From NCBI GenBank assembly GCA_040388725.1, contig JAZKBH010000206.1, forward strand, positions 6,757 to 49,153: a DNA stretch of 42,397 nucleotides, given 5' to 3'. Position numbers and translations under genes: made by a program. This document shows positions 25,276-42,184 of the stretch, in pieces (within the stretch, counting starts at the first letter, position 1; each line of letters begins with the position of its first letter). Below the pieces are notes generated by a model, which was given only the letters and a program-made list of their open reading frames with translations, was not told the DNA's origin and made no database searches. This stretch comes from Verrucomicrobiota bacterium. Its GTDB lineage: Bacteria; Verrucomicrobiota; Verrucomicrobiia; Methylacidiphilales; CAMAQI01.

Positions 25276-25860
25276 ATGCCAAAAAAATCCGTATTCTGCG
25301 TCGCCAATACCCGGGAGCAAGCAGATCGAGTGGTCTTCCAACTAAAAGCCGCCAATTTCTGTCATGACGATATCTCCGTCATTTTTCTCGATAAGGAAAT
25401 TCCTCACCATTTTGTCCCTGAAAAAAATACTCCGATTCCCGAAGGAATCGTTGCTGGGGTGAGTTTAGGAGGAATTTCGGGAGGTCTCTTCGGTTGGATG
25501 ATTGGAATTGGAGCCTTGAGCATTCCCGTCGTCGATGCCTTCATTGTCGTCAGTCCTCTTTTGGAAGCATTCCGTGAAGCCGCCATGGGTGCAACGGTCG
25601 GAGGACTCATCGGGGGACTCATGGGAATGGTCATCCAGGCAATCGAAATCAAATGTAACAAGGAAAAGACCAAACTAAACCACATTCTCATTTCAGTTCA
25701 CACCGAATGCACCGATGAAATCTTTCGTGCTCGAAAAATCTTCACCCAGATAGGAACGAAGGACATTTGTACCAACGGAACATATTCGGCTTCCTTCGAG
25801 AACTCCAAAAACAATTCCTTCTCGAATCGCGGTAAAAATCTTGTCGCCATGCAGTCTTAA
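25276..25860 (+). CDS. general-stress-protein-like membrane protein (YflT/GSP17M-type N-domain plus glycine-zipper segment)
   Basis: I trimmed the 241-aa track ORF to Met48 (MPKKSVFCVANTREQADRVVFQLKAANFCHDDISVIF), because the upstream part covers a repeat arm and the 19-nt element. The middle is a Gly-zipper (GVSLGGISGGLFGWMIGIGAL...GATVGGLIGGLMGM). Confidence 0.6.
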   Translation: MPKKSVFCVANTREQADRVVFQLKAANFCHDDISVIFLDKEIPHHFVPEKNTPIPEGIVAGVSLGGISGGLFGWMIGIGALSIPVVDAFIVVSPLLEAFREAAMGATVGGLIGGLMGMVIQAIEIKCNKEKTKLNHILISVHTECTDEIFRARKIFTQIGTKDICTNGTYSASFENSKNNSFSNRGKNLVAMQS

Positions 25861-26009
25861 TCGCCTTTTTTCTAAGATCGATTGCTTAGAAAATTATGGG
25901 AGATGAATCCTGCTAAGGACCCCCTTTTTAAATCGCTCCCAAAGATGCTAAAATTCGACGTGGGTGATCTCTTTAAAAAATATTTTTGTACACCTCAAGG
26001 AGTTTTATC

Positions 26010-26162
26010 ATGGGTATTATTTTATTGATCGTTCTTGTTCTGATGATGATTGGAGCATTTCCCGCATGGCCTCATAGCCACGATTGGGGATATTACCCCA
26101 GCGGGGGACTCAGCATGATTTTAATCATTTTGGTTATTCTGATTTTGCTCGGAAAAATTTAA
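26010..26162 (+). CDS. DUF3309-like small membrane protein (50 aa)
   Basis: Below the ORF-track size cut-off. AAGGAG at 25997-26002, 7 nt before the ATG. MGIILLIVLVLMMIGAFPAWPHSHDWGYYPSGGLSMILIILVILILLGKI matches my memory of the DUF3309 pattern (two TM segments flanking WPYS..WGY.PSGG). Confidence 0.65.
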   Translation: MGIILLIVLVLMMIGAFPAWPHSHDWGYYPSGGLSMILIILVILILLGKI

Positions 26163-26313
26163 GCCATACGAATCTGTGGTGGCAGCTCAGGCGGCTCTTC
26201 TTGATCGCGCGCAATAGTCAAGCGATCCAGGGAAGGTATTCCCCCAATGTTTTTATGATCCTCCCCATCCTATTATCGATGCAAATACTGTATTTATTGA
26301 TGAACTCATCCTC

Positions 26314-27510
26314 ATGAAAACTTCCCAACCCTCTCTTTTGATTATGAATGGGGGTTCATCGAGCATTAAGTTCGCTCTCTATAAACACGGGGAACCTCTC
26401 ACACGAGAACTTCATGGAAAGATTGATCAGATCGGGAGCAAAGGAACAAGCCTGACCTTCAATGATCCCACCCAGAATCCGTCGGAGAAAAAAAGAATCG
26501 TTGTACCCGATCATTCATCGGCCGCGAATTTTCTAATTCACTGGCTTGAAGAACAGATCCACTTTGAATTCGTGAAGGCCGTGGGACATCGTCTCGTTCA
26601 CGGCTTACAACATACCGCTCCCGAAAGAGTCACTCAGAAACTTTTAGATGAACTCCGTGGGATGAGTCCGTATGATCCGGAACATCTTCCGAGCGAGATC
26701 GAGATGATCGATCTCTTTTGTCAACGCCATCCTCAACTTCCCCAAGTCGTCTGCTTTGACACGGCATTTCATCATGAGATGCCACGGATCGCTAAATGTC
26801 TGCCGATTCCAAGACGCTTTGAAGCGAAGGGAATTCAACGCTACGGGTTCCATGGTTTATCTTATTCTTTTCTGATGGAAGAACTCCTCCGCATCGGGGA
26901 TCCCACCGCGTCCCAAGGCCGCGTGATCCTCGCTCATCTGGGCAACGGAGCCAGTCTCGCCGCCATTCTGAATGGGAAAAGCATCGAGACGAGTATGGGC
27001 TTCACTCCCGCATCCGGATTGATGATGAGTACCCGTTCCGGTGATCTCGATCCCGGATTAATTCATTACTTGGCACAAACCGAACAAATGACTCCGACTC
27101 AATTTAATCACATGGTCAACCACGAGTCTGGTCTGCTCGGCATTTCCGAAACCAGTTCCGATATGCGGGATCTGCTCGCGATAGAAGCCCATGACCCACG
27201 CGCTGCAGAAGCGATCGCCTTATTTTGTTATCAGGTTAAAAAATGGATCGGCTCCTTCGCTGCTGTCTTGGGTGGATTGGATACCCTCGTCTTTTCCGGG
27301 GGAATTGGCGAAAACTCTCCCTCCATTCGCACGCGAATCTGCGCCGGGCTTGATTTTCTCGGCATCGAATTGGATGAAAATTTAAACCAAAAAAATTCAT
27401 CCCTAATTTCAAATGCCTCTGGACGCGTCACGGTTCGAGTGATTCCCACGGACGAAGAGCAAATGATTGCCCGATCCGTTAGTCGTCTGATGAGTAAAAA
27501 ATTGAAATAA
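26314..27510 (+). CDS. ackA: acetate kinase
   Basis: 398 aa with LIMNGGSSSIKFALY at the N-terminus, RYGFHGLSY, AHLGNGASL and VFSGGIGENS. Confidence 0.92.
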   Translation: MKTSQPSLLIMNGGSSSIKFALYKHGEPLTRELHGKIDQIGSKGTSLTFNDPTQNPSEKKRIVVPDHSSAANFLIHWLEEQIHFEFVKAVGHRLVHGLQHTAPERVTQKLLDELRGMSPYDPEHLPSEIEMIDLFCQRHPQLPQVVCFDTAFHHEMPRIAKCLPIPRRFEAKGIQRYGFHGLSYSFLMEELLRIGDPTASQGRVILAHLGNGASLAAILNGKSIETSMGFTPASGLMMSTRSGDLDPGLIHYLAQTEQMTPTQFNHMVNHESGLLGISETSSDMRDLLAIEAHDPRAAEAIALFCYQVKKWIGSFAAVLGGLDTLVFSGGIGENSPSIRTRICAGLDFLGIELDENLNQKNSSLISNASGRVTVRVIPTDEEQMIARSVSRLMSKKLK

Positions 27511-27789
27511 TACGAATCTCCATTTCTATAATGAGATTAGAAAAATCTTAAGAATAAACCAAACAAACCCCGATAAAATCGCATACGTGTCAAATGAAGT
27601 GAAATACAGGAGTTGCATCGATAACAGGATGGGGAGGATCATTGAAATTGAGTTCGAAAACTTGATAATTGAAAAACCCCCTCTGAATTTTTATCCACTT
27701 CATCCTGATATCGATGCTGAATTTTCCACCATCCTTTTCTCATTTATCCCTTTCATCGTTTTTAGATCCATGTAAATTTTCTCTATACC

Positions 27790-29496
27790 ATGACGGTCCC
27801 CTCTTCCCCTTCTCCAAATCCATTGGGTAAAATGGATCTATGGGCGATCGTACTTCTCTCTCTCCTTCTTTTTTTCATCTTCCTCATTACCCGTGAATGG
27901 ATGAGTCCCCTCCAACAAGTCCCTCTCATTCATCTCGAGGGACGATATCTCCCTCTCTATCTCCTTTTCAGTCTATCCCGCGGAATCATCGCCTATGGGA
28001 TCTCTTTTTTATTTACCATGATCTATGGATACGTGATGGCTCGTGTCACGGGAGCCGAACGCTTCATGCTCCCTCTCCTCGATATTCTTCAAAGCATCCC
28101 GGTGCTCGGTTTTCTTCCCGGATTCGTCCTCGGCCTCGTTTACCTTTTTCCCCAACAAAATATCGGTCTTGAAATCGCTTCCATTCTCATGATTTTCACC
28201 GGACAGGTCTGGAATATGACCTTTTCGTTTTATTCGTCGTTGAAATCCGTTCCCCCCGATTTGGTGGCCGTGGCCAGGCTCTCCAGACTCTCCTGGAGTG
28301 AACGATTCATTCGTCTCGATCTCTCTTATGCCACGACCGGACTCCTTTGGAATAGTATGATGTCGATGGCGGGAGGTTGGTTTTTCCTGATGGTGAGCGA
28401 AGCCTTTGTCCTCGGAGAACACGACTTTCGACTCCCCGGAATCGGTTCTTATATGAGCCTCGCCATCGAACGTGGCGACGGAACCGCCCAAGGGATGGGC
28501 GTTCTTGCTATGCTGGGAATGATTGTCTTTGTCGATCAAATCGTCTGGCGACCGTTGGTCAACTGGTCTCATAAATTTACCGATGAAGAAGCGACGGTGG
28601 GAGCCCATCCCTGGTTTTGGAAACAAATCACTCAAACGTGGACTTACTGGAAAATCAGTCGTTTATTCCTATTTTTATTCACTCCACTCCCACTCCTCTT
28701 CAATGGGATTCGCCATTGCACCTCCAAAATAAATTTTCCCGGCTATTTCAAACAAGGGTCCAAGCTCCTCCTCTATATCTTTATCGGCCTCCTTGTTCTC
28801 GGAGGAGCCGTGAAATATCTCCAACTCCTGATGACTCTCGAAAGCCAAGATTGGATCCATCTTCTGACCAGCACGGGAGCGACTTTTATCCGGGTGACCA
28901 TGGCCGTCCTGCTCGCCTCTCTCTGGACGATCCCGGTCGGGGTCATCATTGGTCGTCATCCCCGATGGGTTCATTTCCTTCAACCGATCATTCAGATGGC
29001 CGCGAGTTTTCCTGCTCCGATGATTTTCCCCGTGGTCGTGGGAGTCATGCTGGGGTCTGGCATTGGGCTGGGAATGAGTTCGGTGGTTCTGCTCCTCTTG
29101 GGTTCTCAATGGTATATTCTTTTTAATGTCATCGCCGGAAGCAGTTCCATTCCACGTGAACTCTGGGAAGTCTCTCAAATCACACGGCTCACTTTCTTCC
29201 AACGATGGAGGCATCTCATCTTACCCGCAATCTTCCCCAGCCTTCTGACCGGTTGGATAACGGCCATGGGCGGTGCCTGGAATGCCAGTATCGTCGCCGA
29301 ATATATGAAATATCACGGCGAGACTCTCCTGACGACGGGCCTTGGATCCACGATCAGCCAATCCACAGAACAGGGAAATTTTCACATCCTGGCCGCTGCC
29401 GTGGGAATCATGGCCATCACGGTCGTCAGCTTTAACCGGCTTGTCTGGAGACCTCTCAGTCATTACGCCCAAACCCGCTTCACAATGGAGACCTAA
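27790..29496 (+). CDS. ABC transporter permease, duplicated (two BPD-type domains; nitrate/sulfonate/taurine-like family)
   Basis: 568 aa, polytopic. Two internally similar halves, each with an EAA-like loop (VARLSRLSWSERFIRLDL / VSQITRLTFFQRWRHLIL). Confidence 0.85.
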   Translation: MTVPSSPSPNPLGKMDLWAIVLLSLLLFFIFLITREWMSPLQQVPLIHLEGRYLPLYLLFSLSRGIIAYGISFLFTMIYGYVMARVTGAERFMLPLLDILQSIPVLGFLPGFVLGLVYLFPQQNIGLEIASILMIFTGQVWNMTFSFYSSLKSVPPDLVAVARLSRLSWSERFIRLDLSYATTGLLWNSMMSMAGGWFFLMVSEAFVLGEHDFRLPGIGSYMSLAIERGDGTAQGMGVLAMLGMIVFVDQIVWRPLVNWSHKFTDEEATVGAHPWFWKQITQTWTYWKISRLFLFLFTPLPLLFNGIRHCTSKINFPGYFKQGSKLLLYIFIGLLVLGGAVKYLQLLMTLESQDWIHLLTSTGATFIRVTMAVLLASLWTIPVGVIIGRHPRWVHFLQPIIQMAASFPAPMIFPVVVGVMLGSGIGLGMSSVVLLLLGSQWYILFNVIAGSSSIPRELWEVSQITRLTFFQRWRHLILPAIFPSLLTGWITAMGGAWNASIVAEYMKYHGETLLTTGLGSTISQSTEQGNFHILAAAVGIMAITVVSFNRLVWRPLSHYAQTRFTMET

Positions 29497-29498
29497 AG

Positions 29499-30800
29499 AT
29501 GAGTTCATCTCTTTTGGAAATTAGAAACCTCTTTCAATCCTTCCCTAATCCCCATGGAGGAACAACGGAAGTCCTTCACGACATCAACCTTGAAATCCGC
29601 GAACATGAAGTCGTCGCCATCCTCGGCCCCTCCGGATGCGGCAAATCGACCCTCCTTCGTGCGATCATTGGATTTGAGCCTCCGACTTCCGGTCAAATTT
29701 TTTACCGTGGAAAACTTCAAATGGAATTAAATCCTTCCGCTGCATTAGTCTTTCAAAACTTTGCGCTCTTTCCTTGGTTGACGGTTCAACAAAATATAGA
29801 AATCGGTTTATCGCATCTATCGTTATCTGAAGAGATCCGATTAAAACGTGTTCGCCACGCCATTGATTTGGTCGGACTCGCGGGATCCGAAGAGGCTTAT
29901 CCGAAGGAACTTTCCGGTGGAATGAAACAACGTGTCGGCCTCGCTCGCGCCCTCGCCGTCGAACCCGAAGTTCTTTTCATGGATGAAGCGTTCAGTGCGC
30001 TGGATGTCCTCAGCAGCGAGACGCTTCGCAATGAAGTGGTCGATATCTACACAAGAAAAACATCGGCTGTGAACAGTATTCTCATGGTCACGCATAGTAT
30101 TAGTGAAGGCGTTTTTATGGCGACCAGGCTCGTGGTGATGGGCTCCCACCCTGGAACAATCCGAGCCGTTCTCGACAATCCCCTTCCTTATCCCCGGGAC
30201 GAACATCATCCTGACTTCCTCGCGTTGAATCAAAAGATTCACGAATTGATTACCCAGACAATGATGCCATCGAAGCCCATTTTTCCCACAGTCTCCGGAA
30301 GCACTAAACCTCATATCCAATCGCTTCCCATTGTCTCCCTCAGTCGTACCATCGGTCTTCTGGAAGTTTTAGAAAACGAGGGAACCATGGAACTTTTCGA
30401 ACTCAGTCGTCACGTGAATCTGGAACTGACCCAACTCCTCCTCGTCGTCAAGGGATCCGAACTTCTAAACTGGGTCACCACTCCCGACGGAGAGGTTGAA
30501 ATGACCGAAGCAGGCCGTCAGTTTTTGGAAGCCGATGTCTCCACTCGCAAAAAGCTTTTAAACGAAACCTTGAGACATCTTTATGTTTTCGATCTCGTGA
30601 TTCAGAAGCTTCGAGCATCGTCAAATCAGGAAGTCGATGAAAGCATTATTCTAAAAGAATTATCTATCCTATTTCCCCATGAACGTCCTCTCCGGATCAT
30701 GCGAACCATCATCTCCTGGGCCCGTTACGGCGAGCTCTTTAAATACAGCGCGACCAGAAAAGTTTTTCACGGACTTCAAGAAATACCCTCTCCCCTCTGA
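29499..30800 (+). CDS. ABC transporter ATP-binding protein with a C-terminal extension of about 170 aa (AAA-associated-domain type)
   Basis: 433 aa. Walker A GPSGCGKST, signature LSGGMKQRV, Walker B VLFMDEAFSALD, H-loop MVTHS. A non-ABC C-terminal domain follows (IGLLEVLENEGTMELFELS...). Confidence 0.9.
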   Translation: MSSSLLEIRNLFQSFPNPHGGTTEVLHDINLEIREHEVVAILGPSGCGKSTLLRAIIGFEPPTSGQIFYRGKLQMELNPSAALVFQNFALFPWLTVQQNIEIGLSHLSLSEEIRLKRVRHAIDLVGLAGSEEAYPKELSGGMKQRVGLARALAVEPEVLFMDEAFSALDVLSSETLRNEVVDIYTRKTSAVNSILMVTHSISEGVFMATRLVVMGSHPGTIRAVLDNPLPYPRDEHHPDFLALNQKIHELITQTMMPSKPIFPTVSGSTKPHIQSLPIVSLSRTIGLLEVLENEGTMELFELSRHVNLELTQLLLVVKGSELLNWVTTPDGEVEMTEAGRQFLEADVSTRKKLLNETLRHLYVFDLVIQKLRASSNQEVDESIILKELSILFPHERPLRIMRTIISWARYGELFKYSATRKVFHGLQEIPSPL

Positions 30801-30835
30801 TTTTTGCGCTCATAAACGTCACTCGAAGGAAAATG

Positions 30836-30878
30836 CAGAATTCACCGCAGAGTTTTCCTGCGTTGAATTCTGTTTTTT
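30836..30878 (+). terminator. strong intrinsic terminator
   Basis: CAGAATTCACCGCAG-AGTTTTC-CTGCGTTGAATTCTG (15-bp stem, 1 mismatch) followed by TTTTTT. Confidence 0.85.
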
Positions 30879-30920
30879 ATCAATTTCAAACCCATTTATT
30901 GAATAGGAAATTCTAAATAC

Positions 30921-30992
30921 GGGAGGGGCAAGTTTCCGAGGCCGTCGTTTTGAGATGTTACAGACTCGTGGCCACGGAACCTCGGCCCTCCC
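30921..30992 (+). repeat. structured repeat family E, copy 2
   Basis: GGGAGGGGCAAGTTTCCGAGGCCGTCGTTTTGAGATGTTACAGACTCGTGGCCACGGAACCTCGGCCCTCCC. The termini GGGAGGG/CCCTCCC and CCGAGG/CCTCGG pair. The loop and tail are shared with 15767-15847. Confidence 0.75.
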
Positions 30993-31064
30993 GTTTCGAT
31001 CCCAAAAAAGGATTTTAAGTTTTACCTCGTAAAACTATTCCTCATGCAAGATCTCGGTTAAATA

Positions 31065-31083
31065 GTCGGGTTTTACCCCATGT
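31065..31083 (+). promoter_or_regulatory. conserved 19-nt element, copy 2
   Basis: GTCGGGTTTTACCCCATGT, 83 nt upstream of ATG 31166 and 125 nt upstream of ATG 31208. Confidence 0.6.
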
Positions 31084-31207
31084 CAGTCGTTGGCGTTATT
31101 CTCTAAGTTTTATGAAGAGATGAATAACCGCATTTCCATACGCCTGACTTTTACCTCATTCAAAGATGCCGTCTCGCTCAACCAAAAATAATGAAAGGTC
31201 TTCTCTC

Positions 31208-31894
31208 ATGAATACAATGGATACGAAAAGTGATTCAGAAATTAAACATGACGTTCTTTCAGAACTTAAATACCAACCGAGCGTGAAAGAGACGGATATC
31301 GGCGTCCTTGTCAAAGAGGGAGCCGTAACTCTCACAGGATACGCGGAAAGCTACGAAGACAAAAGGCAGGTCGTCCTTGCGACAAGACGTATTGCAGGGG
31401 TCAAAGCCATCGCGGATGAGCTCCAAGTCCGAATTCCTCACACCTCACTCCGAACCGATGGAGAAATCGCCACGGCAGCGGTCAATCAACTCAATTGGTC
31501 CACCACCATTCCCACAGATGCGGTTCACGTAACAGTTCGAGAAGGTTATGTCACTCTCGAGGGTGAATTGGAATGGGGATATCAAAAAACAGCGGCTGAA
31601 AATGCCACCCACCATCTCATGGGAATTAAAGGCGTCGTCAACCTCATCACCATCAAACCGACACTCGACCCTGCAAATCTCGAATCGGCAATCCAAAAGG
31701 CCTTTGAAAGAAATGCACTTCTCGATGCGAAAAAAATTCATACCGAGATTTCAGAAAATACGGTGACCCTCCGTGGAAGGGTTCGGAATCATAGCGAGCT
31801 TGAAGAAGCGGAACGCGTCGCTTGGGCGGCTCCTGGTGTATTTCTTGTGAATAATCAACTTAAAGTCGATGGAGTGTGGAGTTTTAAGGATTGA
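31208..31894 (+). CDS. BON-domain protein (three BON domains, OsmY-like)
   Basis: Three repeats of the pattern D.EI...V...L......I.V.V..G.VTL.G.V.......A......GVK.V.N.L.V. The start is placed at Met15 (GAAAGG 11 nt upstream). The longest ORF starts at 31166. Confidence 0.85.
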   Translation: MNTMDTKSDSEIKHDVLSELKYQPSVKETDIGVLVKEGAVTLTGYAESYEDKRQVVLATRRIAGVKAIADELQVRIPHTSLRTDGEIATAAVNQLNWSTTIPTDAVHVTVREGYVTLEGELEWGYQKTAAENATHHLMGIKGVVNLITIKPTLDPANLESAIQKAFERNALLDAKKIHTEISENTVTLRGRVRNHSELEEAERVAWAAPGVFLVNNQLKVDGVWSFKD

Positions 31895-31952
31895 TCTCAG
31901 GATATTTTCCAAACAATCCATCGACAGAAAAACCCTCATACTCTCCCCTTCT

Positions 31953-32465
31953 ATGATCCCCTCCCTCCCTCATTCAAAATCGATTGGCATTGCCTCTGAT
32001 CATGGAGGCTATGAATTAAAAAAATATCTCATTCGAATGTTAAATGATGAGGGCTATGAAGTCGTTAATTTTGGAAACGATGAATTAAATTTAGAGGACG
32101 ATTATCCTGACTTTATTATCCCTCTCGCTCGCGCCGTCGCGGAGGGAAAGCCCAGCCGTGGGATTGCCATTTGTGGAAGTGGGGTCGGCGCATCGATTGT
32201 AGCGAATAAAATTCCGGGCATTCGTGCTGCTTTAATTCACGAAAAATATTCTGCTCATCAAGGCGTTGAAGACGACGATCTAAATATCATCTGTCTCGGC
32301 GGCCTTGTCGTCAGCCATCCATTCGCCTGGATCTTGGTTGAAATATTTCTCAAAGCACAATTCAGTAAAGCCCCTCGACATCAACGTCGCGTGAATAAAA
32401 TTTTAGCCCTTGAAAATACACACTCCGATTTCGTTTCTGAGACATCGTCTCTGATCTCGAATTGA
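31953..32465 (+). CDS. rpiB: ribose-5-phosphate isomerase B (RpiB/LacA/LacB family)
   Basis: SIGIASDHGGYELK, GIAICGSGVGASIVANKIPGIRAA, DDLNIICLGG. I trimmed to Met29 because the track ORF start overlaps the BON gene. Confidence 0.88.
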   Translation: MIPSLPHSKSIGIASDHGGYELKKYLIRMLNDEGYEVVNFGNDELNLEDDYPDFIIPLARAVAEGKPSRGIAICGSGVGASIVANKIPGIRAALIHEKYSAHQGVEDDDLNIICLGGLVVSHPFAWILVEIFLKAQFSKAPRHQRRVNKILALENTHSDFVSETSSLISN

Positions 32466-32625
32466 ATAAAGGGAATCCTCGTGCTTCAAAAAATTGAAAT
32501 AGAAAATTCTCTACCTCTGCGTCTCTGCGGTGAAAATGGTATTTTGTCTGTTTTTTCTTCACTTGACGTTCCTGCGACCCGCGATCGCTCCCGCTAAATT
32601 CCTACTGCACGAAATGAGTTTAATG

Positions 32626-32644
32626 GTCGGGTTTAACCCCATAG
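32626..32644 (+). promoter_or_regulatory. conserved 19-nt element, copy 3
   Basis: GTCGGGTTTAACCCCATAG, 69 nt upstream of ATG 32713. Confidence 0.6.
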
Positions 32645-32712
32645 AAGCTTTGCAGTTCGGAGTTAATCTAGGCGATATGAAAGCCCATTTAATTTTCCCT
32701 CACTTTCGAAAA

Positions 32713-32967
32713 ATGCAGTCTCCTTCAAATAAAACGTCATATCGATTGGGTCCTTTCAAAATTATTTTGGGGCTCGCCCTGATTGCCACCTTTTACGGAT
32801 GCGTCGGTTGGGTCGATAACGGAGGAAGCTATAGCGGCGGTGTTATTGTCTCGGAGCCGTATTATTCTTTCTACGACGGCGGTTATGGCGGGGGATATGA
32901 ATATCGAAACTACAGTCATCGTGGATATGCAAGTCGTTCCCATTCTCACCAGGGTCGACATCGATGA
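32713..32967 (+). CDS. small Gly/Tyr/His-rich putative lipoprotein (84 aa)
   Basis: Track ORF trimmed to Met62. Signal-like LGPFKIILGLALIATFYG-C, then GGSYSGG...YDGGYGGGYEYRNYSHRGYASRSHSHQGRHR. Confidence 0.5.
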   Translation: MQSPSNKTSYRLGPFKIILGLALIATFYGCVGWVDNGGSYSGGVIVSEPYYSFYDGGYGGGYEYRNYSHRGYASRSHSHQGRHR

Positions 32968-33026
32968 AAAGATCAGCGATGCATCTCACGACACCTCCAC
33001 AAAAATAAAATAAGAAATCTCTATTT

Positions 33027-34031
33027 ATGAAATATTCCAAACCGCTGATCCATTTCACCCGCTTTTTGACTTTTACACTCCTCGTCTGTATCGAGGGAGC
33101 GTTGACCACAAATATTCAGGCTGCCACAACGCATCCCATTGATTCCAAACCGGAAATCCGAGAAAAATTATTTTCATCTCCCGATGAAGCGATCAAAGCC
33201 TTGAAGACTGCCGTGGAGAGCGACGATCAATCCGAACTACAAAAAATCTTCGGCCCAGAATTCCGGGAGCTCCTCACAGGCGACCGAGTGCAAGATGCGA
33301 ATAACATCCACAAGTTCGCCGATGCGATGAATCAAGGTTGTAAACAGGTCAAAGAAGGAAAAAATACCGTGGTACTTGAGCTTGGAAAGAACGAATGGCC
33401 GATGCCGATTCCACTCCTGAAATCCAATGGAAAATGGCATTTCGATACGACGGAGGGGAAAGAAGAAATCATCAATCGGCATATCGGAAAAGGGGAACTC
33501 TACGCCATCGGCGTTTGCCACGACTATGTCACCGCACAGAAGCAATATGCAAAAGAGATGAAGAAAGAGGGCAACGAAAAGGAGTACGCCCAGAAATTCA
33601 AAAGCACCCCCGGGAAAAGAGATGGACTTTACTGGCCCGCAACAAAAAGTGAGCCCGCCAGTCCTTTCGGACCTTTAGTCGCGGAAGCTCATGCGGAAGG
33701 TTATGTAAGTCATAAAGACAAAGGTCCACACCCCTTTCATGGCTATTATTTTAAAATTCTCACGCAACAAGGTTCCTCCACACCTGGTGGAAAAATGAAT
33801 TATCTGCATGAGGGCCATTTGATCGGGGGCTTCGCTTTAGTCGCCTATCCCGTGATTTGGGAGAAGTCGGGAATTATGACCTTTGTCGTCAATCAAGACG
33901 GAAAAGTCTTTCAGAAAGATTTGGGAGAAGAAACTCAGCGCATTGCAGGAGAGATGAAAGAATACAATCCCGACCCCTCATGGACGAGAGTGAAGGATAA
34001 GGGAATATGGAATGCGATTTTTGAGAAATAA
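33027..34031 (+). CDS. DUF2950-like secreted protein
   Basis: 334 aa with a signal peptide. PFHGYYFKILTQQGSSTPGGKMNYLHEGHLIGGFALVAYPVIWEKSGIMTFVVNQDGKVFQKDLG matches my recollection of the DUF2950 core. Confidence 0.7.
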   Translation: MKYSKPLIHFTRFLTFTLLVCIEGALTTNIQAATTHPIDSKPEIREKLFSSPDEAIKALKTAVESDDQSELQKIFGPEFRELLTGDRVQDANNIHKFADAMNQGCKQVKEGKNTVVLELGKNEWPMPIPLLKSNGKWHFDTTEGKEEIINRHIGKGELYAIGVCHDYVTAQKQYAKEMKKEGNEKEYAQKFKSTPGKRDGLYWPATKSEPASPFGPLVAEAHAEGYVSHKDKGPHPFHGYYFKILTQQGSSTPGGKMNYLHEGHLIGGFALVAYPVIWEKSGIMTFVVNQDGKVFQKDLGEETQRIAGEMKEYNPDPSWTRVKDKGIWNAIFEK

Positions 34032-34081
34032 TGCCATCCCATTTTACGAACGAAAATAAAAACCATACCAAACAAGTTTCT

Positions 34082-34399: not shown

Positions 34400-34414
34400 A
34401 CGTGCATGAGAACT

Positions 34415-34480
34415 GGAGGGGCAGTGGCCCACTGCCTTCCCCGTCTTCTGAGGCACAGAGCCTGTGCCCCTCCATTTTTT
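34415..34480 (+). terminator. compound hairpin plus T-tract (intrinsic terminator after the HPF gene)
   Basis: Outer stem GGAGGGGCA...TGCCCCTCC, with inner hairpins GGCAGTGG-C-CCACTGCC and GGCACAG-AGC-CTGTGCC, then TTTTTT (34475-34480). Confidence 0.75.
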
Positions 34481-34540
34481 ATCACCCTTTGGGTCTATGA
34501 CTTTGCAGATAAAACCAATTCTAATGAAGAATATGGATTT

Positions 34541-34576
34541 AAAACTCTGTGCCTCTGCCTCTCTGTGGTGAAACGG
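34541..34576. repeat. repeat family B copy (CACAGAG-type) in the phosphoketolase leader
   Basis: AAAACTCTGTGCCTCTGCCTCTCTGTGGTGAAACGG. Its reverse complement TTTCACCACAGAGAGGCAGAGGCACAGAG resembles 36981-37013. Confidence 0.7.
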
Positions 34577-34599
34577 TATTCTCTAAAACGTGTTCATTT

Positions 34600-36969
34600 A
34601 TGAAAACAAAAACACTCTCCCCCGAAGATCTAAATCAAATCGATGCCTACTGGCGTGCTGCCAATTATCTCTCGGTCGGGCAAATTTATCTTTACGATAA
34701 TCCCCTTCTCAAACGTCCCCTCAAACTCTCGGATGTGAAGCGTATGTTGCTGGGACATTGGGGAACGACTCCCGGTCAAAATTTTATATATGCGCATCTG
34801 AACCGGATCATCAAAAAATACGATCTCAATATGATCTATGTCTCCGGTCCCGGACATGGAGGCCCAGCGGTCGTGGCGAACACGTATCTCGAGGGAACTT
34901 ACAGCGAGGTCTACCCTCACATCTCCCAAGACGAAGTGGGTCTTCAAAAACTCTTCAAACAATTTTCATTTCCCGGAGGAATTCCGAGTCATGCCTCACC
35001 GGAATGCCCGGGATCGATTCACGAGGGAGGTGAACTCGGTTACTCTCTCAGTCATTCATTCGGAGCCGTCTTCGATAATCCGAATCTCATTGTGGCTTGT
35101 TGCGTCGGCGATGGAGAAGCGGAGACCGGACCTCTCGCCACCGCTTGGCATTCCAATAAATTTCTCAATCCCGCCACCGATGGCGCGGTGCTTCCGATCC
35201 TTCATCTCAACGGTTACAAGATCTCCAATCCCACCCTTCTCGCCCGCATTACCCATGAAGAATTGGATCAGTTGCTCCGGGGTTACGGCTGGATTCCTTA
35301 TTATGTCGAAGGCCATGACCCCGAACTCATGCATGAAGCGATGGCCTCGATGCTCGATCTGGTGGTGGAAGAGATTCAAAAAATTCAACAAGAAGCTCGT
35401 CGCCATGGCAATCATATCCGTCCACGATGGCCGATGATTGTCCTCGCTTCGCCTAAAGGATGGACAGGTCCGAAGCTCGTCGATGGATTACAGGTAGAAG
35501 GAACCTTCCGTTCGCATCAAGTTCCTCTTTCAGATCCCGCGACTCATTCTGAACATCTTCAGCAATTAGAAACGTGGCTTAAAAGTTATCGACCGGAAGA
35601 ACTTTTCAACGAACAAGGCCGCTTAAAACCGGAACTTGCCGAACTTGCCCCTCAAGGCGACCGACGTATGGGCGCAAATCCTCATGCCAATGGCGGTCTT
35701 CTCCTTCGTGATTTGAAGATGCCCAATTTTAAGGATTATGCCATCGATGTTCCCACACCCGGAGTGCAAGGGATCGGTGATACCCACGTCCTTGGTGTTT
35801 TTCTTCGCGATATCGCGATCCTGAATCAGGATGAGCGTAATTTTCGAATTTTCGGCCCAGATGAAACTCTCTCCAATGGCTTGGAAGCCTTATTTAAAGT
35901 GACGCAACGTCAATGGGAGGCACAGACTTTGCCAAACGACGAATTTCTTGCGCCCGCAGGTCGTGTCATGGAAATGCTCAGTGAGCACCAATGTGAGGGT
36001 TGGCTCGAAGGTTATCTTCTCACCGGAAGACATGGTCTTTTTAATTGCTACGAAGCCTTCATTCATATTGTCGATTCGATGTTCAACCAACATGCGAAAT
36101 GGTTGAAAGTCACCTTGCACATGCCGTGGCGGCGTAAGATCGCCTCGCTCAACTACCTTCTCGCTTCCCATGTCTGGCGTCAGGATCACAACGGATTCAC
36201 GCATCAAGATCCCGGATTCATCGATCACGTCGTGAACAAAAAAGCCGAAATCATCCGCGTTTATCTCCCCCCGGATGCGAACTCTCTCCTCTCTGTCATG
36301 GATCACTGCCTGCGCAGCCGACATTATGTGAATGTCGTGATCGCGGGCAAACATCCCGCTCCTCAATGGTTGACGATGGAAGCCGCGGCCAAACATTGCG
36401 CGGAGGGAGTCGGAATCTGGGACTGGGCCTGCAACGACCACGGCGAAGAACCCGATCTGGTCATGGCCTGTTGTGGCGATGTTCCAACCCTCGAAACTTT
36501 AGCGGCGGTCTCGATTCTCCGAGTCCATCTCCCCGGTCTCAAAATCCGGGTCGTCAATGTCGTGGATCTGATGAAGCTTCAACCCCAAAGCGAACATCCT
36601 CATGGACTCAGTGATCTCGATTTCGACAATCTCTTTACAAAAGACAAACCGATTGTCTTCGCCTTTCATGCTTATCCCGGGTTGATCCACCGTCTGACCT
36701 ATCGTCGAACCAATCACGACAATATTCACGTCCGGGGTTACAAAGAGGAAGGGACGATCACCACTCCTTTTGACATGACGGTGCTCAATGATCTCGATCG
36801 TTTCCACCTCGTCATGCTGGCCATCGATCTCATTCCCCGAACCGGAACCCAAGGAACATCCTTAAAACGGCGCCTCGAAGAAAAACTGATCGAACATAAA
36901 CAATACATCGATCAACAAGGCCAGGACATGCCCGAAATCCGAAACTGGAAATGGACTGCATCCATTTAA
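34600..36969 (+). CDS. xfp: phosphoketolase (xylulose-5-P/fructose-6-P phosphoketolase)
   Basis: 789 aa from [25 protein letters not shown] (the track ORF begins 17 codons earlier, inside repeat B1). [32 protein letters not shown] and the overall length are typical of XFP. Confidence 0.92.
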
Positions 36970-36980
36970 GATTCAGAAGG

Positions 36981-37378
36981 TTTTCACCACAGAGATAAAA
37001 CCGAGACACAGAGCTTAGGAGATTTCTATTTAAAAGACACAGGCTCTATTGAAATGATCCTATCAAAGTGATTGGAGGGGCAAAACCAATTTCTTAAAAG
37101 CGGAGCCTGAATAGTTTGGCGTGGGGAACGCAACCTCCGCGAGTCCAACGTGTGGGATCATCCCCGAATGATTCGCATTCAGGAAAACCTCATCGATTCT
37201 GGCATATCTCCCCTTCCTGTAGCCACTATCCCTTCGGAGATGCCAACATCCTCTCCCATGAAATGCTCATTCTATCATCACGAGATCGTCTAAAACCTTG
37301 GACTCGCAGCGCTCGTCCCTCCATATAAATCAAAGACTTTCCCATACTCTGTGTCTCGGTTTTTCTCTGTGGTAAAAA
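36981..37378. repeat. 398-bp non-coding element bounded by 32-33-bp family B inverted repeats
   Basis: TTTTCACCACAGAGATAAAACCGAGACACAGAG (36981-37013) versus the reverse complement of 37347-37378, TTTTTACCACAGAGAAAAACCGAGACACAGAG (1 mismatch plus 1 indel). The interior carries a half-copy of the 1328-1392 hairpin arm. Confidence 0.8.
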
Positions 37379-37420
37379 TGTTTTTCGGCTCTTTCTGTTG
37401 AAGTCGACCTGTATGTATCA

Positions 37421-37439
37421 GTCGGGTTTTACCCCATAG
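37421..37439 (+). promoter_or_regulatory. conserved 19-nt element, copy 4
   Basis: GTCGGGTTTTACCCCATAG, 16 nt upstream of ATG 37455 and 34 nt upstream of ATG 37473. Confidence 0.6.
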
Positions 37440-37454
37440 CATGAGTCCAGCTCC

Positions 37455-37904
37455 ATGCATTATCCTCATTCCATGAAGAACCCCACATCCGACCCTGTCA
37501 CAAAGTCTGCTGCCGGTTTATGGATTGATCACCGAAAAGCCGTCATCGTCATCCTCTCCGCGAATGGAGAAAAAACGACCGTCGTTCAATCCCAGGTCGA
37601 AAAGCAACCGGGACGTTATGAGGGAGTTCGTTCCACAACCCCATTTGAATCTCACAATGTTTCAGCCGATGATCGCCATCAAAGAAAGTTTACCAGTGAG
37701 CTCCGGGATTATTACAAAGAGGTCATCGATGTGATTGGCGAATCGCAATCCATTCTCCTCTTGGGTCCCGGCGAGGCCAAAGGCGAACTGAAAAAACGTC
37801 TCGAGCATGACCACCCTGGAAAACAAGTGATCGAGATCGAGACTTCCGATAAAATGACCGATCGGCAGATTGCAGCAAAAGTTCACGACCACTTCCATTT
37901 ATAG
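37455..37904 (+). CDS. small eRF1-domain-like / host-attachment-family-like protein (149 aa)
   Basis: LWIDHRKAVIVILS...DDRHQRKFTSELRDYYKEVIDVIGESQSILLLGPGEAKGELKKRL...ETSDKMTDRQIAAKV. The layout resembles Host_attach/baeRF-type proteins by eye. It is the first gene of the grpE operon. Confidence 0.45.
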   Translation: MHYPHSMKNPTSDPVTKSAAGLWIDHRKAVIVILSANGEKTTVVQSQVEKQPGRYEGVRSTTPFESHNVSADDRHQRKFTSELRDYYKEVIDVIGESQSILLLGPGEAKGELKKRLEHDHPGKQVIEIETSDKMTDRQIAAKVHDHFHL

Positions 37905-37915
37905 AAATTGATTTC

Positions 37916-38428
37916 GTGGACGAGCCCATGAATCCCGATCCTCTTCCTCCTGACATGGATTCCCCCATTCAAAATGAATTGATAGCCCTCAAGGAGAGCT
38001 ACCTTCGACTCGCAGCGGATTTCGATAATTTTAAAAAACGAACCCGCCGAGATTCCGAGCAACGAGCCTCAGAGGAAAAAGAATCCTTCATTCAAGATCT
38101 CCTCCCCGTTCTCGACAATCTCGAGCGTGCATTAGATTCCGGATCATCCGCCTCCTTTGAACAATTACATCAAGGGGTCGCCATGACGTTGCAGCAATTA
38201 TACCATTTGCTTCGTCAGCAGGGGATTCGAGTCGTCGATGATCTCGGTCGCCCTTTTGATCCCCATCGGCATGAAGCTATTTTTGTCCAGAACGACCCCC
38301 TTCACCCCGATCATACCATCCTCAAAGTCACTCAGCGTGGTTACTCTCGCGGAGACAAAGTTTTTCGTCCTTCCCAAGTCATTGTCAACGATCTGAACCA
38401 TTCCTCCCCGACATCCCATGCCTATTGA
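37916..38428 (+). CDS. grpE: nucleotide exchange factor GrpE
   Basis: [39 protein letters not shown] and [19 protein letters not shown] start at 37916, alternative ATG at 37928. Confidence 0.9.
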
Positions 38429-39386
38429 ATTCAAAGATTATTACGATGTTCTCGGACTCAGCCGCAATGCGAGCGACGAGGAGATTAAAAAAGCCTTTCG
38501 CAAACTGGCACGCCAATACCATCCCGACGTGGCTAAAAACAAAGCCACCGCCGAGGAAAAATTCAAGGCGATCAACGAAGCCCATGAAGTTCTGAGTGAT
38601 CCCGAAAAAAGAAAAAAATACGATGCGTTGGGAGAAAATTGGAACCATCCCGAACGACAGGCCTCTTCGTCACACGGTGGATTTAGAGGAAGTTCTGATG
38701 AAGCCTCCGAATTCCATTTTAATGGCACGGGCTTCAGTGATTTTTTTGAGCAATTCTTTGGGAATCACGGTCAACCCTCTGGAGATTTTGGCCGCACGTC
38801 TCACCGCCCAAATGGGGCACCCATCGCTCAGCATGGTCAGGATATCGAAGGGAACATTCTCGTAACTTTAGAAGAAATTCTACACGGTTCGACCCGTACG
38901 ATCCAATTGCAACATACGGATCCCAAGACTCGTCAATCCACACTGCAAACCCTACGCGTCAAGATTCCACCCGGGGTTCGCGAAGGACAACTGATTCGTC
39001 TCTCCGGGAAAGGAGAAGAAGGAATGGGAGGAGGAGATTCGGGCCATCTCTATTTGCGAGTCAAATTCGCACAACACCCCGACTATCGGATTAAAGGCAC
39101 TGATTTATATTACGATTTAGAACTCTCCCCCTGGGAAGCCGTCCTTGGTGCGACGATCCAAATTTCGACTTTAGACGGAATGGTTTCCTTAAAAGTTCCG
39201 TCAGGAACAATTTCAGAACGCCAATTCCGTTTGCGCGGCAAAGGCCTCCCCACAGGAAGCACTTCGAGGGGCGATTTTTATGCCATCACCTCCATTCAAG
39301 TTCCCTCACAAATCACCCCGGAAGAAAAAGTCCTCTGGGAATCGTTAGCTGAAAAATCGAAGTTTAATCCGAGGAAAATCTCATGA
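38418..39386 (+). CDS. cbpA: J-domain co-chaperone, CbpA type (no zinc-finger domain)
   Basis: 322 aa. KDYYDVLGL...YHPD J-domain, G/F-rich linker and two C-terminal beta domains. The protein contains no cysteine, so there is no CxxCxGxG. It overlaps grpE by 11 nt. Confidence 0.88.
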
Positions 39387-39721
39387 AAAAATTTAGCGAT
39401 CAAAAGTCTTCATCTCCGCTCGGCCTTGAAATATTTCAACCCCAACCCAACACGCTCTATAGTCTCGAAGTCACTGCGCATCTTGCCGGGGTTCCGCGTC
39501 GATCTGTTCTTCTCTACTGTCGCGCGGGCCTTGTCCACCCGCTCTTTCAACCTCCTCATGGAGTGATGGAGTTTACCGAAGAGGCCATTTATACCGTTCG
39601 AAAAATCGAGTATCTGCGGGCCAATCATACCATGGATCTCACCTGGTTCAAAATGATGATCGATTTACGTGACGAACTCGATCACTTACGTGCCGAAATC
39701 CGTTTTTTAAGGAATCGATAA
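39383..39721 (+). CDS. MerR-type HTH protein (CbpM / HspR-like chaperone-operon modulator)
   Basis: 112 aa. ATGA overlap with the J-protein gene. [26 protein letters not shown] (HTH) followed by a C-terminal coiled-coil [17 protein letters not shown]. Confidence 0.75.
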
Positions 39722-39744
39722 ATCCAATTTTCTATATTAGGAAT

Positions 39745-39895
39745 TTCTCGGGAGCGATCGCGGGTCGCGATCACGCAACCTCGCATGCCCAACGCCCTCT
39801 CAGAAAGCCTATCGATTGTGCAGGATAGAGTGATGATTTTTGAATGCGGTAATGATGATTCTTGGCGTGATCCCGACCCGCGTTCGCTCCCGAGA
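39745..39895. repeat. 151-nt element with 30-bp inverted-repeat arms and a 91-nt interior
   Basis: TTCTCGGGAGCGATCGCGGGTCGCGATCAC (39745-39774) versus the reverse complement of 39866-39895, TTCTCGGGAGCGAACGCGGGTCGGGATCAC. 28 of 30 match. Confidence 0.85.
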
Positions 39896-40001
39896 ATCTC
39901 TTTCACCTCGTGGGTGATTCGCTTTATAGATAGAGACCTAATGCATGAAATTGATTTATTGATAAATATTTATTTTCATCATCAAAAAGAACCTTTCAAT
40001 A

Positions 40002-40020
40002 GTAGGGTTACACCCCATCG
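40002..40020 (+). promoter_or_regulatory. conserved 19-nt element, copy 5
   Basis: GTAGGGTTACACCCCATCG, about 280 nt upstream of the ATPase ATG (40304) and 97 nt upstream of a 58-codon ORF (40117). Confidence 0.55.
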
Positions 40021-40303
40021 CCTCATTGAGTTTTCCAACTATCTTCTCCTCCTGAATCACCCCATTGAAAAAAGCTTACTGAAAATAAAAATTCTCTCCC
40101 CATCCTACAGACTTCCATGACCTCCTTCGACGATCCCAAAACGCTTCCCGTTCAATTAACTTTTCGAGCGGAAACCGATTCCACACGCAAAAATCCCTCT
40201 TTCCAAATCTGGCATGAGCGGGGAAGCCTTTCGTCGTCGCTTCGAAAAAAGGATCTTACCTTTCAAAAAATCCTCTTTTCCCATATAACTTAAAGACCTA
40301 CTT

Positions 40304-42184
40304 ATGGAAAAATCCCTTCCCTTAACAAAATATTCAAATTCTCTTTGGTTTAGAAAAACAACCATCATCGCTTCATTTGCACTCCTCTGCATTCTGATCC
40401 ATTTGCTCCTTCGCTTTGGATTTCAGACTCCTCCTCCGATCGATCATATTCCCCTTTGGATCACGCTCGCCCTGGGAGGATCGCCCCTTCTTTATGACCT
40501 CATCCGAAAACTCTTTAAACGGGAGTTTGGCTCCGATCTTTTAGGCGGGATCTCCATTGTTACTTCCATCGTCCTGGGTGAATACTTAGCCGGTTCCATC
40601 ATAGTCCTGATGCTCTCCGGAGGTGAAGCGTTAGAAAGTTATGCCTTAGCGAGTGCCTCTTCTGTTCTGGCTGCCCTCGCCAAGCGAATGCCCTCCATTG
40701 CCCATCGAAAAAAAGGGACTGAAATCGCCGATATCTCCCTGCAAGAAGTCGCTCTCGGAGATATCCTCGTCCTCTACCCTCATGATATCTGTCCCGTGGA
40801 TGGAGTCGTTAAAGAAGGACATGGATCCATGGACGAATCCTTTTTAACGGGCGAACCCTTTCAAATGACGAAGACCTCCGGTTCCGCTGTCATTTCCGGA
40901 GCGATTAACGGCGAATCCGCTTTAACCATTGAAACCACAAAACTTCCCGCCGACTCGCGTTATTCCAAAATCATGGAGGTCATGCGGGAGTCTGAAAGCA
41001 AACGCCCTCAGCTCCAAAGACTCGGTGATCGATTAGGCGCTTTTTATACGCCCCTCGCCCTCATCGTCGCTCTCAGTGCTTGGGGGATCAGTGGGGAATC
41101 GATCCGCTTTCTCGCCGTTTTAGTCATCGCTACCCCTTGTCCTCTCCTCCTCGCCATCCCCATTGCCATCATCGGATCGATCTCTCTCTGCGCCCGCCGC
41201 GCGATCATCATCAAAAGTCCTGTCGTTCTCGAGCAAATCTCGGGATGCCGAACCGCCATTTTTGATAAAACAGGAACACTCACTTACGGCGAACCGAAGC
41301 TCACCGATCAACTCGTCGCGCCTGACTTTCAACCGCACGAAATCCTCACCCTCGTTGCCAGCCTGGAACGATACTCCAAACACCCCCTTGCACGCGCCAT
41401 TCTGGCGGCAGCCCTTGAAGCCAAGATCACACTTCCCGAAGCCTCGGACGTCGGTGAAAAACCGGGTCAAGGATTGAAGGGAACCGTCTCGGGTCACCTG
41501 ATCCAAATCACGAGTCGAAACAAATTACTCTCTCAAAAGCTTACTCTAGCGAATCAACTCCCCCCGATCGCTGGAGGCCTTGAATGTGTTGTTCTTGTCG
41601 ATGATCGCTACGCCGCCACATTTCGTTTCCGTGATGCACCACGAGCCGAGAGTCGCTCTTTTGTGAGCCATCTCGGTCCTGCACACCAATTTAAAAAGAC
41701 CATGATCATCTCCGGCGATCGACAATCCGAGGTCCAATATCTCGCCGAACAAGTTGGCATTTCTGAAATTCATGCGGAAAAAAGCCCAGAGGAAAAACTC
41801 GCTCTTGTTCGACATGAAACCGAACTCACAAAAACACTCTATGTCGGCGACGGGATCAACGATGCTCCCGCGATGATGGCGGCCACCGTCGGAATCGCCA
41901 TCGGTCAAAACAGTGATGTCACCGCCGAAGCGGCGGGAGTCGTCATCATGGATAACTCCCTCAAAAAAGTCGACGAGTTCATGCACATCAGCCGTCGCAT
42001 GCGGATCATTGCTCTTCAAAGTGCCGTCGGAGGAATGGCCCTCAGCCTGATTGGAATGCTCTTCGCCGCCAGTGGCTTTTTAAGTCCTGTCCAAGGCGCC
42101 ATTATCCAGGAAATCATCGACGTTCTCGCCGTCCTCAACGCTCTCCGAGCCGCTTTCCCTCCAAAAATTATTCACGATCTCTAA
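40304..42184 (+). CDS. P1B-type heavy-metal-translocating P-type ATPase without an N-terminal metal-binding domain
   Basis: 626 aa. TGEP, the TM motif ATPCPL (TPC), FDKTGTLT, and [11 protein letters not shown]. No HMA (CxxC) domain and no C-terminal extension. Confidence 0.9.

Follow-up and report, generated by a model that had tools for sequence, protein, structure and literature searches.

The window analysed here is a stretch of 42,397 nucleotides (nt) from a Verrucomicrobiota bacterium, positions 6757-49153 of contig C206 in the bacterium's own 3.62-Mb assembly (G000). Its right-hand part carries a cluster of stress-type genes that follows a soluble PAS-domain histidine kinase and a NarL-family response regulator. 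Five transcription units in this cluster are each preceded by a copy of the same short palindromic sequence, called the box in what follows. Judging from the promoter architecture and from the distribution of the box in related genomes, the five units probably share one promoter type that is activated by the upstream regulator, a reading to which a probability of roughly 0.7 is attached. Genes were called by Pfam and NCBIfam profile searches of the open reading frames (ORFs) of the window, and every long ORF from 19191 to 42184 lies on the + strand. An earlier reading made from the letters alone (the sequence-only reading) let the cluster begin at 25276; it starts with the first box, at 25174. 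On the other side its visible extent is cut off by the end of the contig, which is also the right end of the window. The genes are listed below, with the evidence for each call in brackets.

19191-19859, + strand: CheB, first gene of the sensor operon (Pfam)
19911-22574, + strand: CheB-CheR-PAS_10 fusion, second gene of the sensor operon (Pfam)
22599-23987, + strand: soluble PAS/HisKA_3/HATPase_c histidine kinase (Pfam)
23984-24223, + strand: orf79, a KaiB stub (BLASTP)
24220-24903, + strand: NarL-family response regulator, Response_reg plus GerE helix-turn-helix (HTH) (Pfam)
25276-25860, + strand: YflT/Gly-zipper-like membrane protein, unit 1 (Pfam, sub-threshold)
25986-26162, + strand: DUF3309 protein, unit 1 (Pfam, E 5e-22)
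26314-27510, + strand: acetate kinase, AckA; membership of unit 1 uncertain (Pfam)
27790-29496, + strand: fused ATP-binding cassette (ABC) permease; membership of unit 1 uncertain (Pfam)
29499-30800, + strand: ABC ATPase; membership of unit 1 uncertain (Pfam)
31166-31894, + strand: OsmY-like protein with three BON domains, unit 2 (Pfam, NCBIfam)
31983-32465, + strand: RpiB, unit 2 (Pfam, NCBIfam)
32677-32967, + strand: small Tyr/Gly-rich lipoprotein, predicted leaderless, heading unit 3 (ATG at +48)
33027-34031, + strand: DUF2950 protein, unit 3 (Pfam)
34031-34399, + strand: HPF/S30AE (RaiA) protein, a short divergent paralogue, unit 3 (Pfam)
34600-36969, + strand: phosphoketolase, xfp; the true start is probably ATG 34600 (Pfam)
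37473-37904, + strand: eRF1 middle-domain-like protein, predicted leaderless, unit 4 (fold search)
37916-38428, + strand: GrpE, unit 4 (Pfam)
38418-39386, + strand: CbpA-type J protein, unit 4 (Pfam)
39383-39721, + strand: MerR/CbpM-like protein, unit 4 (borderline: MerR_1 E 2.6e-4; MerR_2 E 1.6e-3, below gathering score)
40304-42184, + strand: P1B heavy-metal P-type ATPase, unit 5 (NCBIfam TIGR01525, 489 bits; also TIGR01512)

All genes named by the sequence-only reading are present, with two calls on softer ground: the eRF1-like protein is recognised by its fold only, and the product of 25276-25860 has only sub-threshold matches to the YflT and Gly-zipper models (E 0.04-0.08). The lipoprotein ORF at 32677-32967 was absent from that earlier list, and the eRF1-like gene starts at ATG 37473 instead of 37455. 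No binding-protein gene lies beside the ABC permease and ATPase pair.

The strict form of the shared element was searched as AGT[AC]GGGTT[AT]NACCCCAT, with CACCCCAT as shorthand for the box type, and box positions are numbered from the first G of GGGT. Within the window the strict element occurs five times, at 25174, 31064, 32625, 37420 and 40001, always on the + strand and co-oriented with the genes, in agreement with the earlier remark that a shared element punctuates the stretch. By chance 0.08 copies would be expected in the window, and no shuffle reached five. The whole 3.62-Mb assembly contains only seven strict copies, and five of them fall within 15 kb, where about 0.03 would be expected. 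The sole copies of the box outside the window are one at C263:6749-6765 (L002), 44 nt before the gene of a BcsA-like cellulose synthase of 756 amino acids (aa) that is followed by a BcsB-like gene, and one at C43:4348-4364 (L003), upstream of the gene of a Cys-rich secreted protein. The five promoters of the cluster, each with its predicted transcription start site (TSS), are the following.

25174-25219, + strand: promoter 1, box AGTAGGGTTACACCCCAT, GGGT at 25178, -10 TACTCT at 25214-25219, predicted TSS about 25226
31064-31109, + strand: promoter 2, box AGTCGGGTTTTACCCCAT, GGGT at 31068, -10 TAAGTT at 31104-31109, predicted TSS about 31116
32625-32669, + strand: promoter 3, box GGTCGGGTTTAACCCCAT, GGGT at 32629, -10 TAATCT at 32664-32669, predicted TSS at ATG 32677
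37420-37466, + strand: promoter 4, box AGTCGGGTTTTACCCCAT, GGGT at 37424, -10 TATCCT at 37461-37466, predicted TSS at ATG 37473
40001-40045, + strand: promoter 5, box AGTAGGGTTACACCCCAT, GGGT at 40005, -10 TATCTT at 40040-40045, predicted TSS about 40052

An alignment of 120 non-redundant sites, all taken from other genomes, gives the full box as GGTAGGGTTACACCCCATAGC and its core as a 15-bp dyad, T-R-GGGT-N3-ACCC-Y-A. The core is invariant and information is absent upstream of -4. After 19 uninformative positions a TAnnnT motif follows at +36 to +41, with A(+37) and T(+41) in 83% of sites, and all seven sites of the window's own genome have TAnnnT within 1 nt of the expected position. The -35 region, at +13 to +18, lacks a TTGACA-like signal in the alignment. 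At 20 of 127 sites the ATG of the first downstream ORF falls at +48 or +49; elsewhere the starts spread broadly over 79-106. Since the A of the ATG is the first nucleotide of a leaderless mRNA, the pile-up at +48/+49 places the start of transcription at about these positions and the centre of the dyad (+5) near -43.5. The ATGs of units 3 and 4 (32677 and 37473) coincide with the predicted TSS, and both units are predicted to be leaderless. The box, its conservation and its fixed spacing to the -10 can be read directly from the DNA, as can the gene associations and the linkage to the regulator that are described below. Taken together, box and -10 would form a complete promoter in which the dyad near -43.5 occupies the position of a class-II activator site. 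In silico, the layout has the features of a class-II sigma70-type promoter, namely a site at about -41 to -45, a recognisable -10 and a weak or absent -35. This predicted shared promoter is much firmer than the assignment of a regulator to it.

The palindrome could also be an operator at which the NarL-type regulator, or some other protein, represses the units until stress brings de-repression. A palindromic operator close to a promoter is often bound by a repressor, and the sequence alone does not reveal the sign of regulation, that is, whether a bound protein activates or represses. Nevertheless, the site is centred near -43.5, upstream of the -10, whereas a repressor site more usually overlaps the -10 or the TSS, and the missing TTGACA-like -35 consensus is the layout of an activator-dependent promoter. 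De-repression is for these reasons considered quite improbable. A still less probable explanation is that the clustering is a by-product of repeat spread or of chance, the element being a mobile or structural repeat or an RNA hairpin and the units being independent. The region is rich in other repeats, including a miniature inverted-repeat transposable element (MITE)-like 140-mer and several long inverted repeats, and GGGU-N3-ACCC could form a tiny hairpin. However, terminal repeats are absent from the element, whose length is only about 20 nt. It always points towards a gene, at a constant distance from the -10 and from the leaderless ATGs, and it is kept across families before the same gene families. 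An RNA element was ruled out, as the arms are invariant instead of covarying and no Rfam family matches in the stretch.

Turning to the candidate activator, the cluster lies directly downstream of the PAS-kinase and NarL-regulator genes (22599-23987 and 24220-24903), just as the sequence-only reading had stated. The pair has the make-up of a NarL/FixJ-type two-component system. By Pfam, the regulator joins a receiver domain (Response_reg, E 4e-27) to a GerE/LuxR-type HTH (GerE, E 9e-18), and the kinase joins HisKA_3 (E 5e-11) to HATPase_c (E 4e-12); no equivalog model in NCBIfam covers the regulator. Genes orthologous to that of the regulator (60-80% identity) were collected from 80 species together with their 10-kb flanks, and the resulting 80 loci (1.13 Mb) contain 109 boxes. 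In at least 10 of them (cluster CL1) a box stands ahead of the kinase operon itself, and sites gathered genome-wide in relatives, free of this sampling bias, are also often found beside the kinase and regulator pair. In about 16 of the 80 loci, as well as in the relatives G004 and G120, the CheB gene and the CheB-CheR-PAS_10 fusion recur together ahead of the kinase. Both the N-terminus of the kinase and the fusion protein bear coiled-coil repeats of the 'NEELQ' type.

The linkage between box and regulator extends through the phylum. The strict box was present in 8 of 31 relatives, against 0 for a reversed control pattern, and a looser form used for the phylum scan, GGGTWWNACCCCAT, reached up to 23 copies per genome with controls near 0. 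A phyletic test was carried out on 300 genomes of the phylum, each at least 90% complete. Two or more boxes were found in 20 of the 33 genomes with the regulator and in 9 of the 267 without it, an odds ratio of 44, for which the nominal p of 5e-16 is inflated by the non-independence of related genomes. A paralogous NarL regulator used as a control gave an odds ratio of 1.4. This paralogue, encoded on contig C128 of the window's assembly, was also considered as a general box factor for the same-genus genomes and was rejected, its distribution following class and not boxes.

Several observations weigh against the regulator as activator, or against parts of the proposed set. Two genomes of the same genus, G001 and G003 (95-96% complete), retain well-formed boxes before xfp, the eRF1-like gene and the ATPase gene. 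No orthologue of the regulator, the kinase or the CheB-CheR fusion was found in either, the best NarL match being a 40% paralogue. A search of the same-genus genomes for histidine kinases, response regulators and CheB-CheR proteins returned only unrelated systems of CheB-CheR with methyl-accepting chemotaxis proteins, in G003. Four drafts (G352, G378, G390 and G393) hold 4-7 boxes with no regulator detected, many of those boxes lying at contig ends. The kinase and regulator operon of the window has no box in front of it, and 13 of the 33 regulator-bearing genomes have fewer than two boxes of the searched form. As for content, the nearest box upstream of AckA, the ABC pair and xfp is 1-5 kb away, and inverted repeats or a terminator-like hairpin intervene. 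Homologues of DUF2950, at nine loci in seven other genomes, have neither a box nor an HPF gene, a finding that rules out DUF2950 as a conserved member of the regulon. On account of the box-bearing genomes without a detected regulator, the probability that the upstream NarL-type regulator is the activator of the boxes was set at about 0.7.

Part of the same evidence would suit a real shared promoter element that is read by another factor, either an alternative sigma factor with an unusual, extended -35 or another transcription factor, the kinase and regulator being no more than a member or a neighbour. Six draft genomes keep boxes without a detectable regulator orthologue, some regulator-bearing genomes are poor in boxes, and the boxes before the kinase operon in at least 10 relatives are what a mere regulon member would show. 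Such a factor is nonetheless thought unlikely. The -10 has the housekeeping form TAnnnT and keeps a fixed distance from the box, and a dyad 15-mer with a variable 3-nt centre is typical of a site for a dimeric HTH protein and unlike a -35 element. In the loci examined, boxes have no other regulator as a recurrent neighbour, the odds ratios of 44 and 1.4 set the regulator apart from the paralogue control, and the regulator-less genomes are fragmented, with many of their boxes at contig ends.

The genes found behind boxes in relatives, as identified with Pfam, give an impression of what the box may control. BON/PRC-barrel proteins are the commonest box-linked family (24 sites). They are accompanied by Dps, OsmC, CsbD, DUF883, SRPBCC, entericidin and ice-binding-like proteins, by small membrane proteins (DUF3309, DUF5670 and a 65-aa family), and by an AMPK-type carbohydrate-binding module, aldehyde dehydrogenase and hemerythrin. 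The list also includes the Gly-zipper protein, the eRF1-like protein, the P1B ATPase and phosphoketolase. Homologues of both core proteins of unit 1 are box-linked in relatives (clusters CL8 and CL5), as are Tyr/Gly-rich lipoproteins ('GCxGYVD') like that of unit 3. For xfp, a box stands immediately before the gene in G001, G120, G352 and G390, the gene lies within a boxed cluster in G141 and G355, boxes are found just past it in G388, and in G011, G319 and G349 the contig that carries xfp also has boxes, at distances of 1.5 to about 14 kb. In both L019 and G001 the eRF1-like orthologue follows a box, with the ATG at +49. For the ATPase orthologue of G001 (84%), the distance from the first G of the box to the start codon is 84 nt, which leaves a leader of about 35 nt, and the orthologue of G004 (78%) comes after a small ORF that is preceded by a box. 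The ATPase gene of the window has a predicted leader at 40052-40303 of about 250 nt, or else a small ORF of 58 codons at 40117-40293, for which no homologues were found. At locus L098 (G001:C18, 1451-1867) a box precedes a 138-aa ORF that corresponds to a C-terminal fragment only of a P-type ATPase.

Clustering of boxed units is itself conserved, and in this respect the synteny check proposed with the sequence-only reading came out in its favour. In G004, which belongs to the same family, 9 kb contain four boxed units, among them the ATPase orthologue and OsmC-CsbD. In G120, from another family, genes for the CheB-CheR fusion, the histidine kinase and the response regulator precede a 58-kb series of about 13 co-oriented boxed units with xfp at its end. 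In G141 a KaiC-KaiB-KaiB-kinase-regulator series is followed by boxed units that include GrpE-CbpA-MerR and a run from BON to xfp. Gene-by-gene synteny between the window and its relatives is otherwise loose. No box-linked homologues of AckA or of the ABC pair were found in relatives; these genes, together with DUF2950, HPF and RpiB, appear to be linked to the set by position only and in this window. Elsewhere the regulon content looks to be of general-stress and dormancy type and broader than a dormancy programme. The box and regulator pair would, on this comparative evidence, define a general-stress-type regulon across Verrucomicrobiota. The co-regulated survival programme proposed earlier is accordingly kept in part, in the form of one predicted promoter architecture that is linked to the regulator across the phylum, and AckA, the ABC pair, phosphoketolase and DUF2950 are less firmly tied to it in the window.

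The stretch had also been described as a 17-kb island. It is a gene cluster, real as such, and not an acquired island, given that the guanine-plus-cytosine (GC) content of 0.43-0.54 shows no step across the window, that there is no tRNA and that no Rfam family is present; horizontal acquisition was ruled out. No integrase was found among the ORFs scanned with Pfam. Repeats lie at several of the unit borders. An inverted-repeat element of 52 nt with CGACG/CAACG words, at 24948-25144, separates the regulator gene from box 1 and is likely an insulator or terminator. Arms related to it occur at 11970-12010 and 12235-12284, about 13 kb upstream, before the gene of a 1077-aa BNR/CBM protein. An inverted repeat of 46 nt (89% complementary; 26250-26295 and 27602-27647) brackets the acetate kinase gene exactly, and its right arm overlaps the region's best sigma70-like match at 27642-27669. 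Between HPF and xfp a MITE-like repeat of about 140 bp (34403-34546) has been inserted, with a terminator-like hairpin at 34452-34468. More than 40 copies of this repeat occur in G003, a genome of the same genus, and a few in G002, and a related arm lies at 15886-15910. Owing to the AckA inverted repeat and the MITE-like repeat with its hairpin, the extent of units 1 and 3 is uncertain. GC-rich arms (GCGACCCGCGATCGCTCCCG) at 39718-39776 and 39865-39896 form an inverted repeat after the MerR-like gene, and a further complementary GC-rich arm at 32574-32624 ends immediately before box 3; such arms may act as unit insulators or terminators. Generic scans of 24000-42397 for sigma70 promoters and terminators gave no excess over shuffles and were not used to define units.

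In the favoured reading, the five co-oriented transcription units would share one activator-dependent promoter. In response to a presumed inducing signal, the PAS/HisKA_3 kinase would phosphorylate the NarL-family regulator (24220-24903), which in turn would bind the palindrome as a dimer, abutting the poor -35 and contacting RNA polymerase as a class-II activator. Binding of the regulator would then switch on the whole set. This set would consist of envelope and osmotic protectants (the Gly-zipper protein, DUF3309, BON protein and lipoprotein), ribosome-silencing candidates (the HPF paralogue and the eRF1-domain protein), a GrpE/CbpA/CbpM chaperone module, a metal-efflux pump and, probably, phosphoketolase.

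Some of these proteins depart from the canonical members of their families. The HPF of the cluster scores 31.9 bits against PF02482 (Ribosomal_S30AE), which is weak and yet above the gathering cut-off of 23.7. A canonical HPF gene (67 bits) is found on another contig of the assembly (C276:7985-8269), and the copy in the cluster is therefore a second, divergent one. The CbpA-type J protein matches DnaJ (1.8e-28) and DnaJ_C (2e-42) with no zinc-finger domain match, and it scores 237 bits against the curved-DNA-binding protein model, below the cut-off of 403. The GrpE/CbpA module of the cluster is without a DnaK gene.

The eRF1-like protein has no match in Pfam, in NCBIfam or in a profile search against the sequences of the PDB. 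It belongs to a family of about 8000 matches, typically of 134 aa, for which there is no Pfam model and of which some are named Dom34 by the Joint Genome Institute (JGI). An AlphaFold model of the 143-aa protein, with a predicted local distance difference test (pLDDT) score of 76.5, was compared with the PDB by Foldseek. All of the top 30 hits were eRF1, aRF1, Pelota, Dom34 or Balon (Rv2629, Msmeg1130), with E from 3e-6 to 1.6e-3. The match covers the middle domain only: for 2hst the template modelling (TM) score is 0.53, and TM scores normalised to full-length targets are 0.22-0.27. The model thus suggests an eRF1/Pelota fold for the protein. The three-domain architecture of Balon and aeRF1 (about 370 aa) was considered and rejected for this protein, which at 143 aa has the middle domain only. 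Balon genes are reported to adjoin those of RaiA, DnaK/DnaJ, OsmY and OsmC (PMC10901736), and the eRF1-like gene of the window keeps the same company. It differs in that its product belongs to a separate and very large single-domain family. Together, the eRF1-domain protein and the HPF paralogue may be regarded as candidates for ribosome silencing.

Among described systems, the sequence-only reading had singled out the DosR (DevR) regulon of mycobacteria as an analogy. This is a dormancy regulon, which hypoxia, NO or CO induces. That regulon includes HPF-like Rv0079, aeRF1-fold Rv2629, the P-type ATPase ctpF and a chaperone (PMC3177182, PMC10901736). Rv2629, which is Balon, is induced by hypoxia and lies in the DevR-regulated Rv2628 operon of M. 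tuberculosis (PMC10901736, PMC3177182). The Dev box is 20 bp long with GGGACT half-sites, and at least two boxes are needed per promoter (PMC3177182). The two systems have in common a HisKA_3-type kinase with a NarL-family regulator, and a dyad with GGG half-sites (GGGACT for DevR, TRGGGT in the window) next to or over the -35 (PMC3177182). Both sets contain an HPF-like factor, an aeRF1-fold factor, a P-type ATPase and a chaperone, and the fold match to Balon strengthens the analogy. The differences are equally clear. Among solved relatives the window regulator is closer to VraR (1e-45), NarL (3.5e-31) and DesR (1e-29), with DevR sixth (3e-25). Its sensor has PAS/PAS_9 before HisKA_3 and no GAF domain, whereas the Dos sensors carry tandem heme-GAF domains. 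In the window there is one box per promoter, with a TRGGGT half-site and a 3-nt spacer; the ATPase is P1B and not of the ctpF type, the eRF1-like protein has a single domain, and the content is broader and of general-stress type. Membership of the DevR/DosR regulon was ruled out by the non-orthologous regulator, the lack of a heme-GAF sensor, the different single box and the P1B ATPase. The comparison would hold in the sense that the cluster may work like the DosR regulon, not that it belongs to it.

General stress regulons under alternative sigma control are those of RpoS in E. coli, SigB in Bacillus and EcfG/PhyR in Alphaproteobacteria, whose effectors include OsmY/BON, Dps, OsmC, CsbD, ElaB/DUF883, entericidin, YflT-like proteins, RaiA/HPF and CbpA-CbpM. 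The box regulon overlaps this repertoire and adds ribosome-silencing and chaperone genes. It differs from all three in that it is apparently run by a two-component activator on promoters with a housekeeping-type -10. With the class-II promoters of NarL/FixJ-type regulators it would share a site for a dimeric GerE-type HTH about 41-45 bp before the start, which replaces a good -35, although the sequence of the box is unlike the NarL heptamers.

One further aspect of the sensor operon concerns the KaiBC proteins. In G004, G141 and L011 the operon reads CheB, CheB-CheR, histidine kinase 1 (HK1), KaiC, KaiB, KaiB, histidine kinase 2 (HK2) and regulator, and a KaiC-KaiB-KaiB-HK2 series stands between the first kinase and the regulator in 10 of the 50 regulator loci with at least 5 kb of upstream sequence. 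In a tblastn comparison with the G004 operon, the kinase of the window is the orthologue of HK1 and about 240 internal residues shorter than the HK1 of G004. The 79-codon orf79, which overlaps the kinase gene with its start codon and the regulator gene with its stop codon, encodes a protein whose first 41 aa are 44% identical to the N-terminus of the second KaiB of G004 (BLASTP, E 9e-7). No KaiC match was found in the G000 assembly. Compared with non-cyanobacterial KaiBC two-component modules, then, these relatives keep the full set, whereas the genome of the window has only the 41-aa KaiB stub and no KaiC. A doubtful though conceivable extension is that in the wider family the box regulon is the transcriptional output of a KaiBC timer, the strain of the window being 'clock-less' with HK1 wired directly to the regulator. 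If true, non-photosynthetic Verrucomicrobia would schedule a stress set by time of day or by a metabolic hourglass, and the scheduled set would comprise ribosome silencing, chaperones, envelope protection and phosphoketolase-based ATP supply. Nothing relevant was found in the literature on a link between Kai proteins and a verrucomicrobial stress response.

Verrucomicrobiota are abundant in soil, freshwater and guts. To our knowledge, no general stress response has been defined for the phylum, and a literature search for this box or regulon, or for a verrucomicrobial general stress response, returned nothing. The analysis provides several handles in the form of a precise cis-element, predicted transcription starts that include those of leaderless mRNAs, and a candidate sensor and regulator pair. 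One predicted circuit would unite the eRF1-like single-domain family, a second HPF, a DnaK-less GrpE/CbpA module and phosphoketolase, so that translation shutdown, proteostasis and substrate-level ATP supply may be linked to one another and, in relatives, also to KaiBC. With these handles the survival programme of the phylum would become directly testable, and its regulon could be read from any genome or metagenome.

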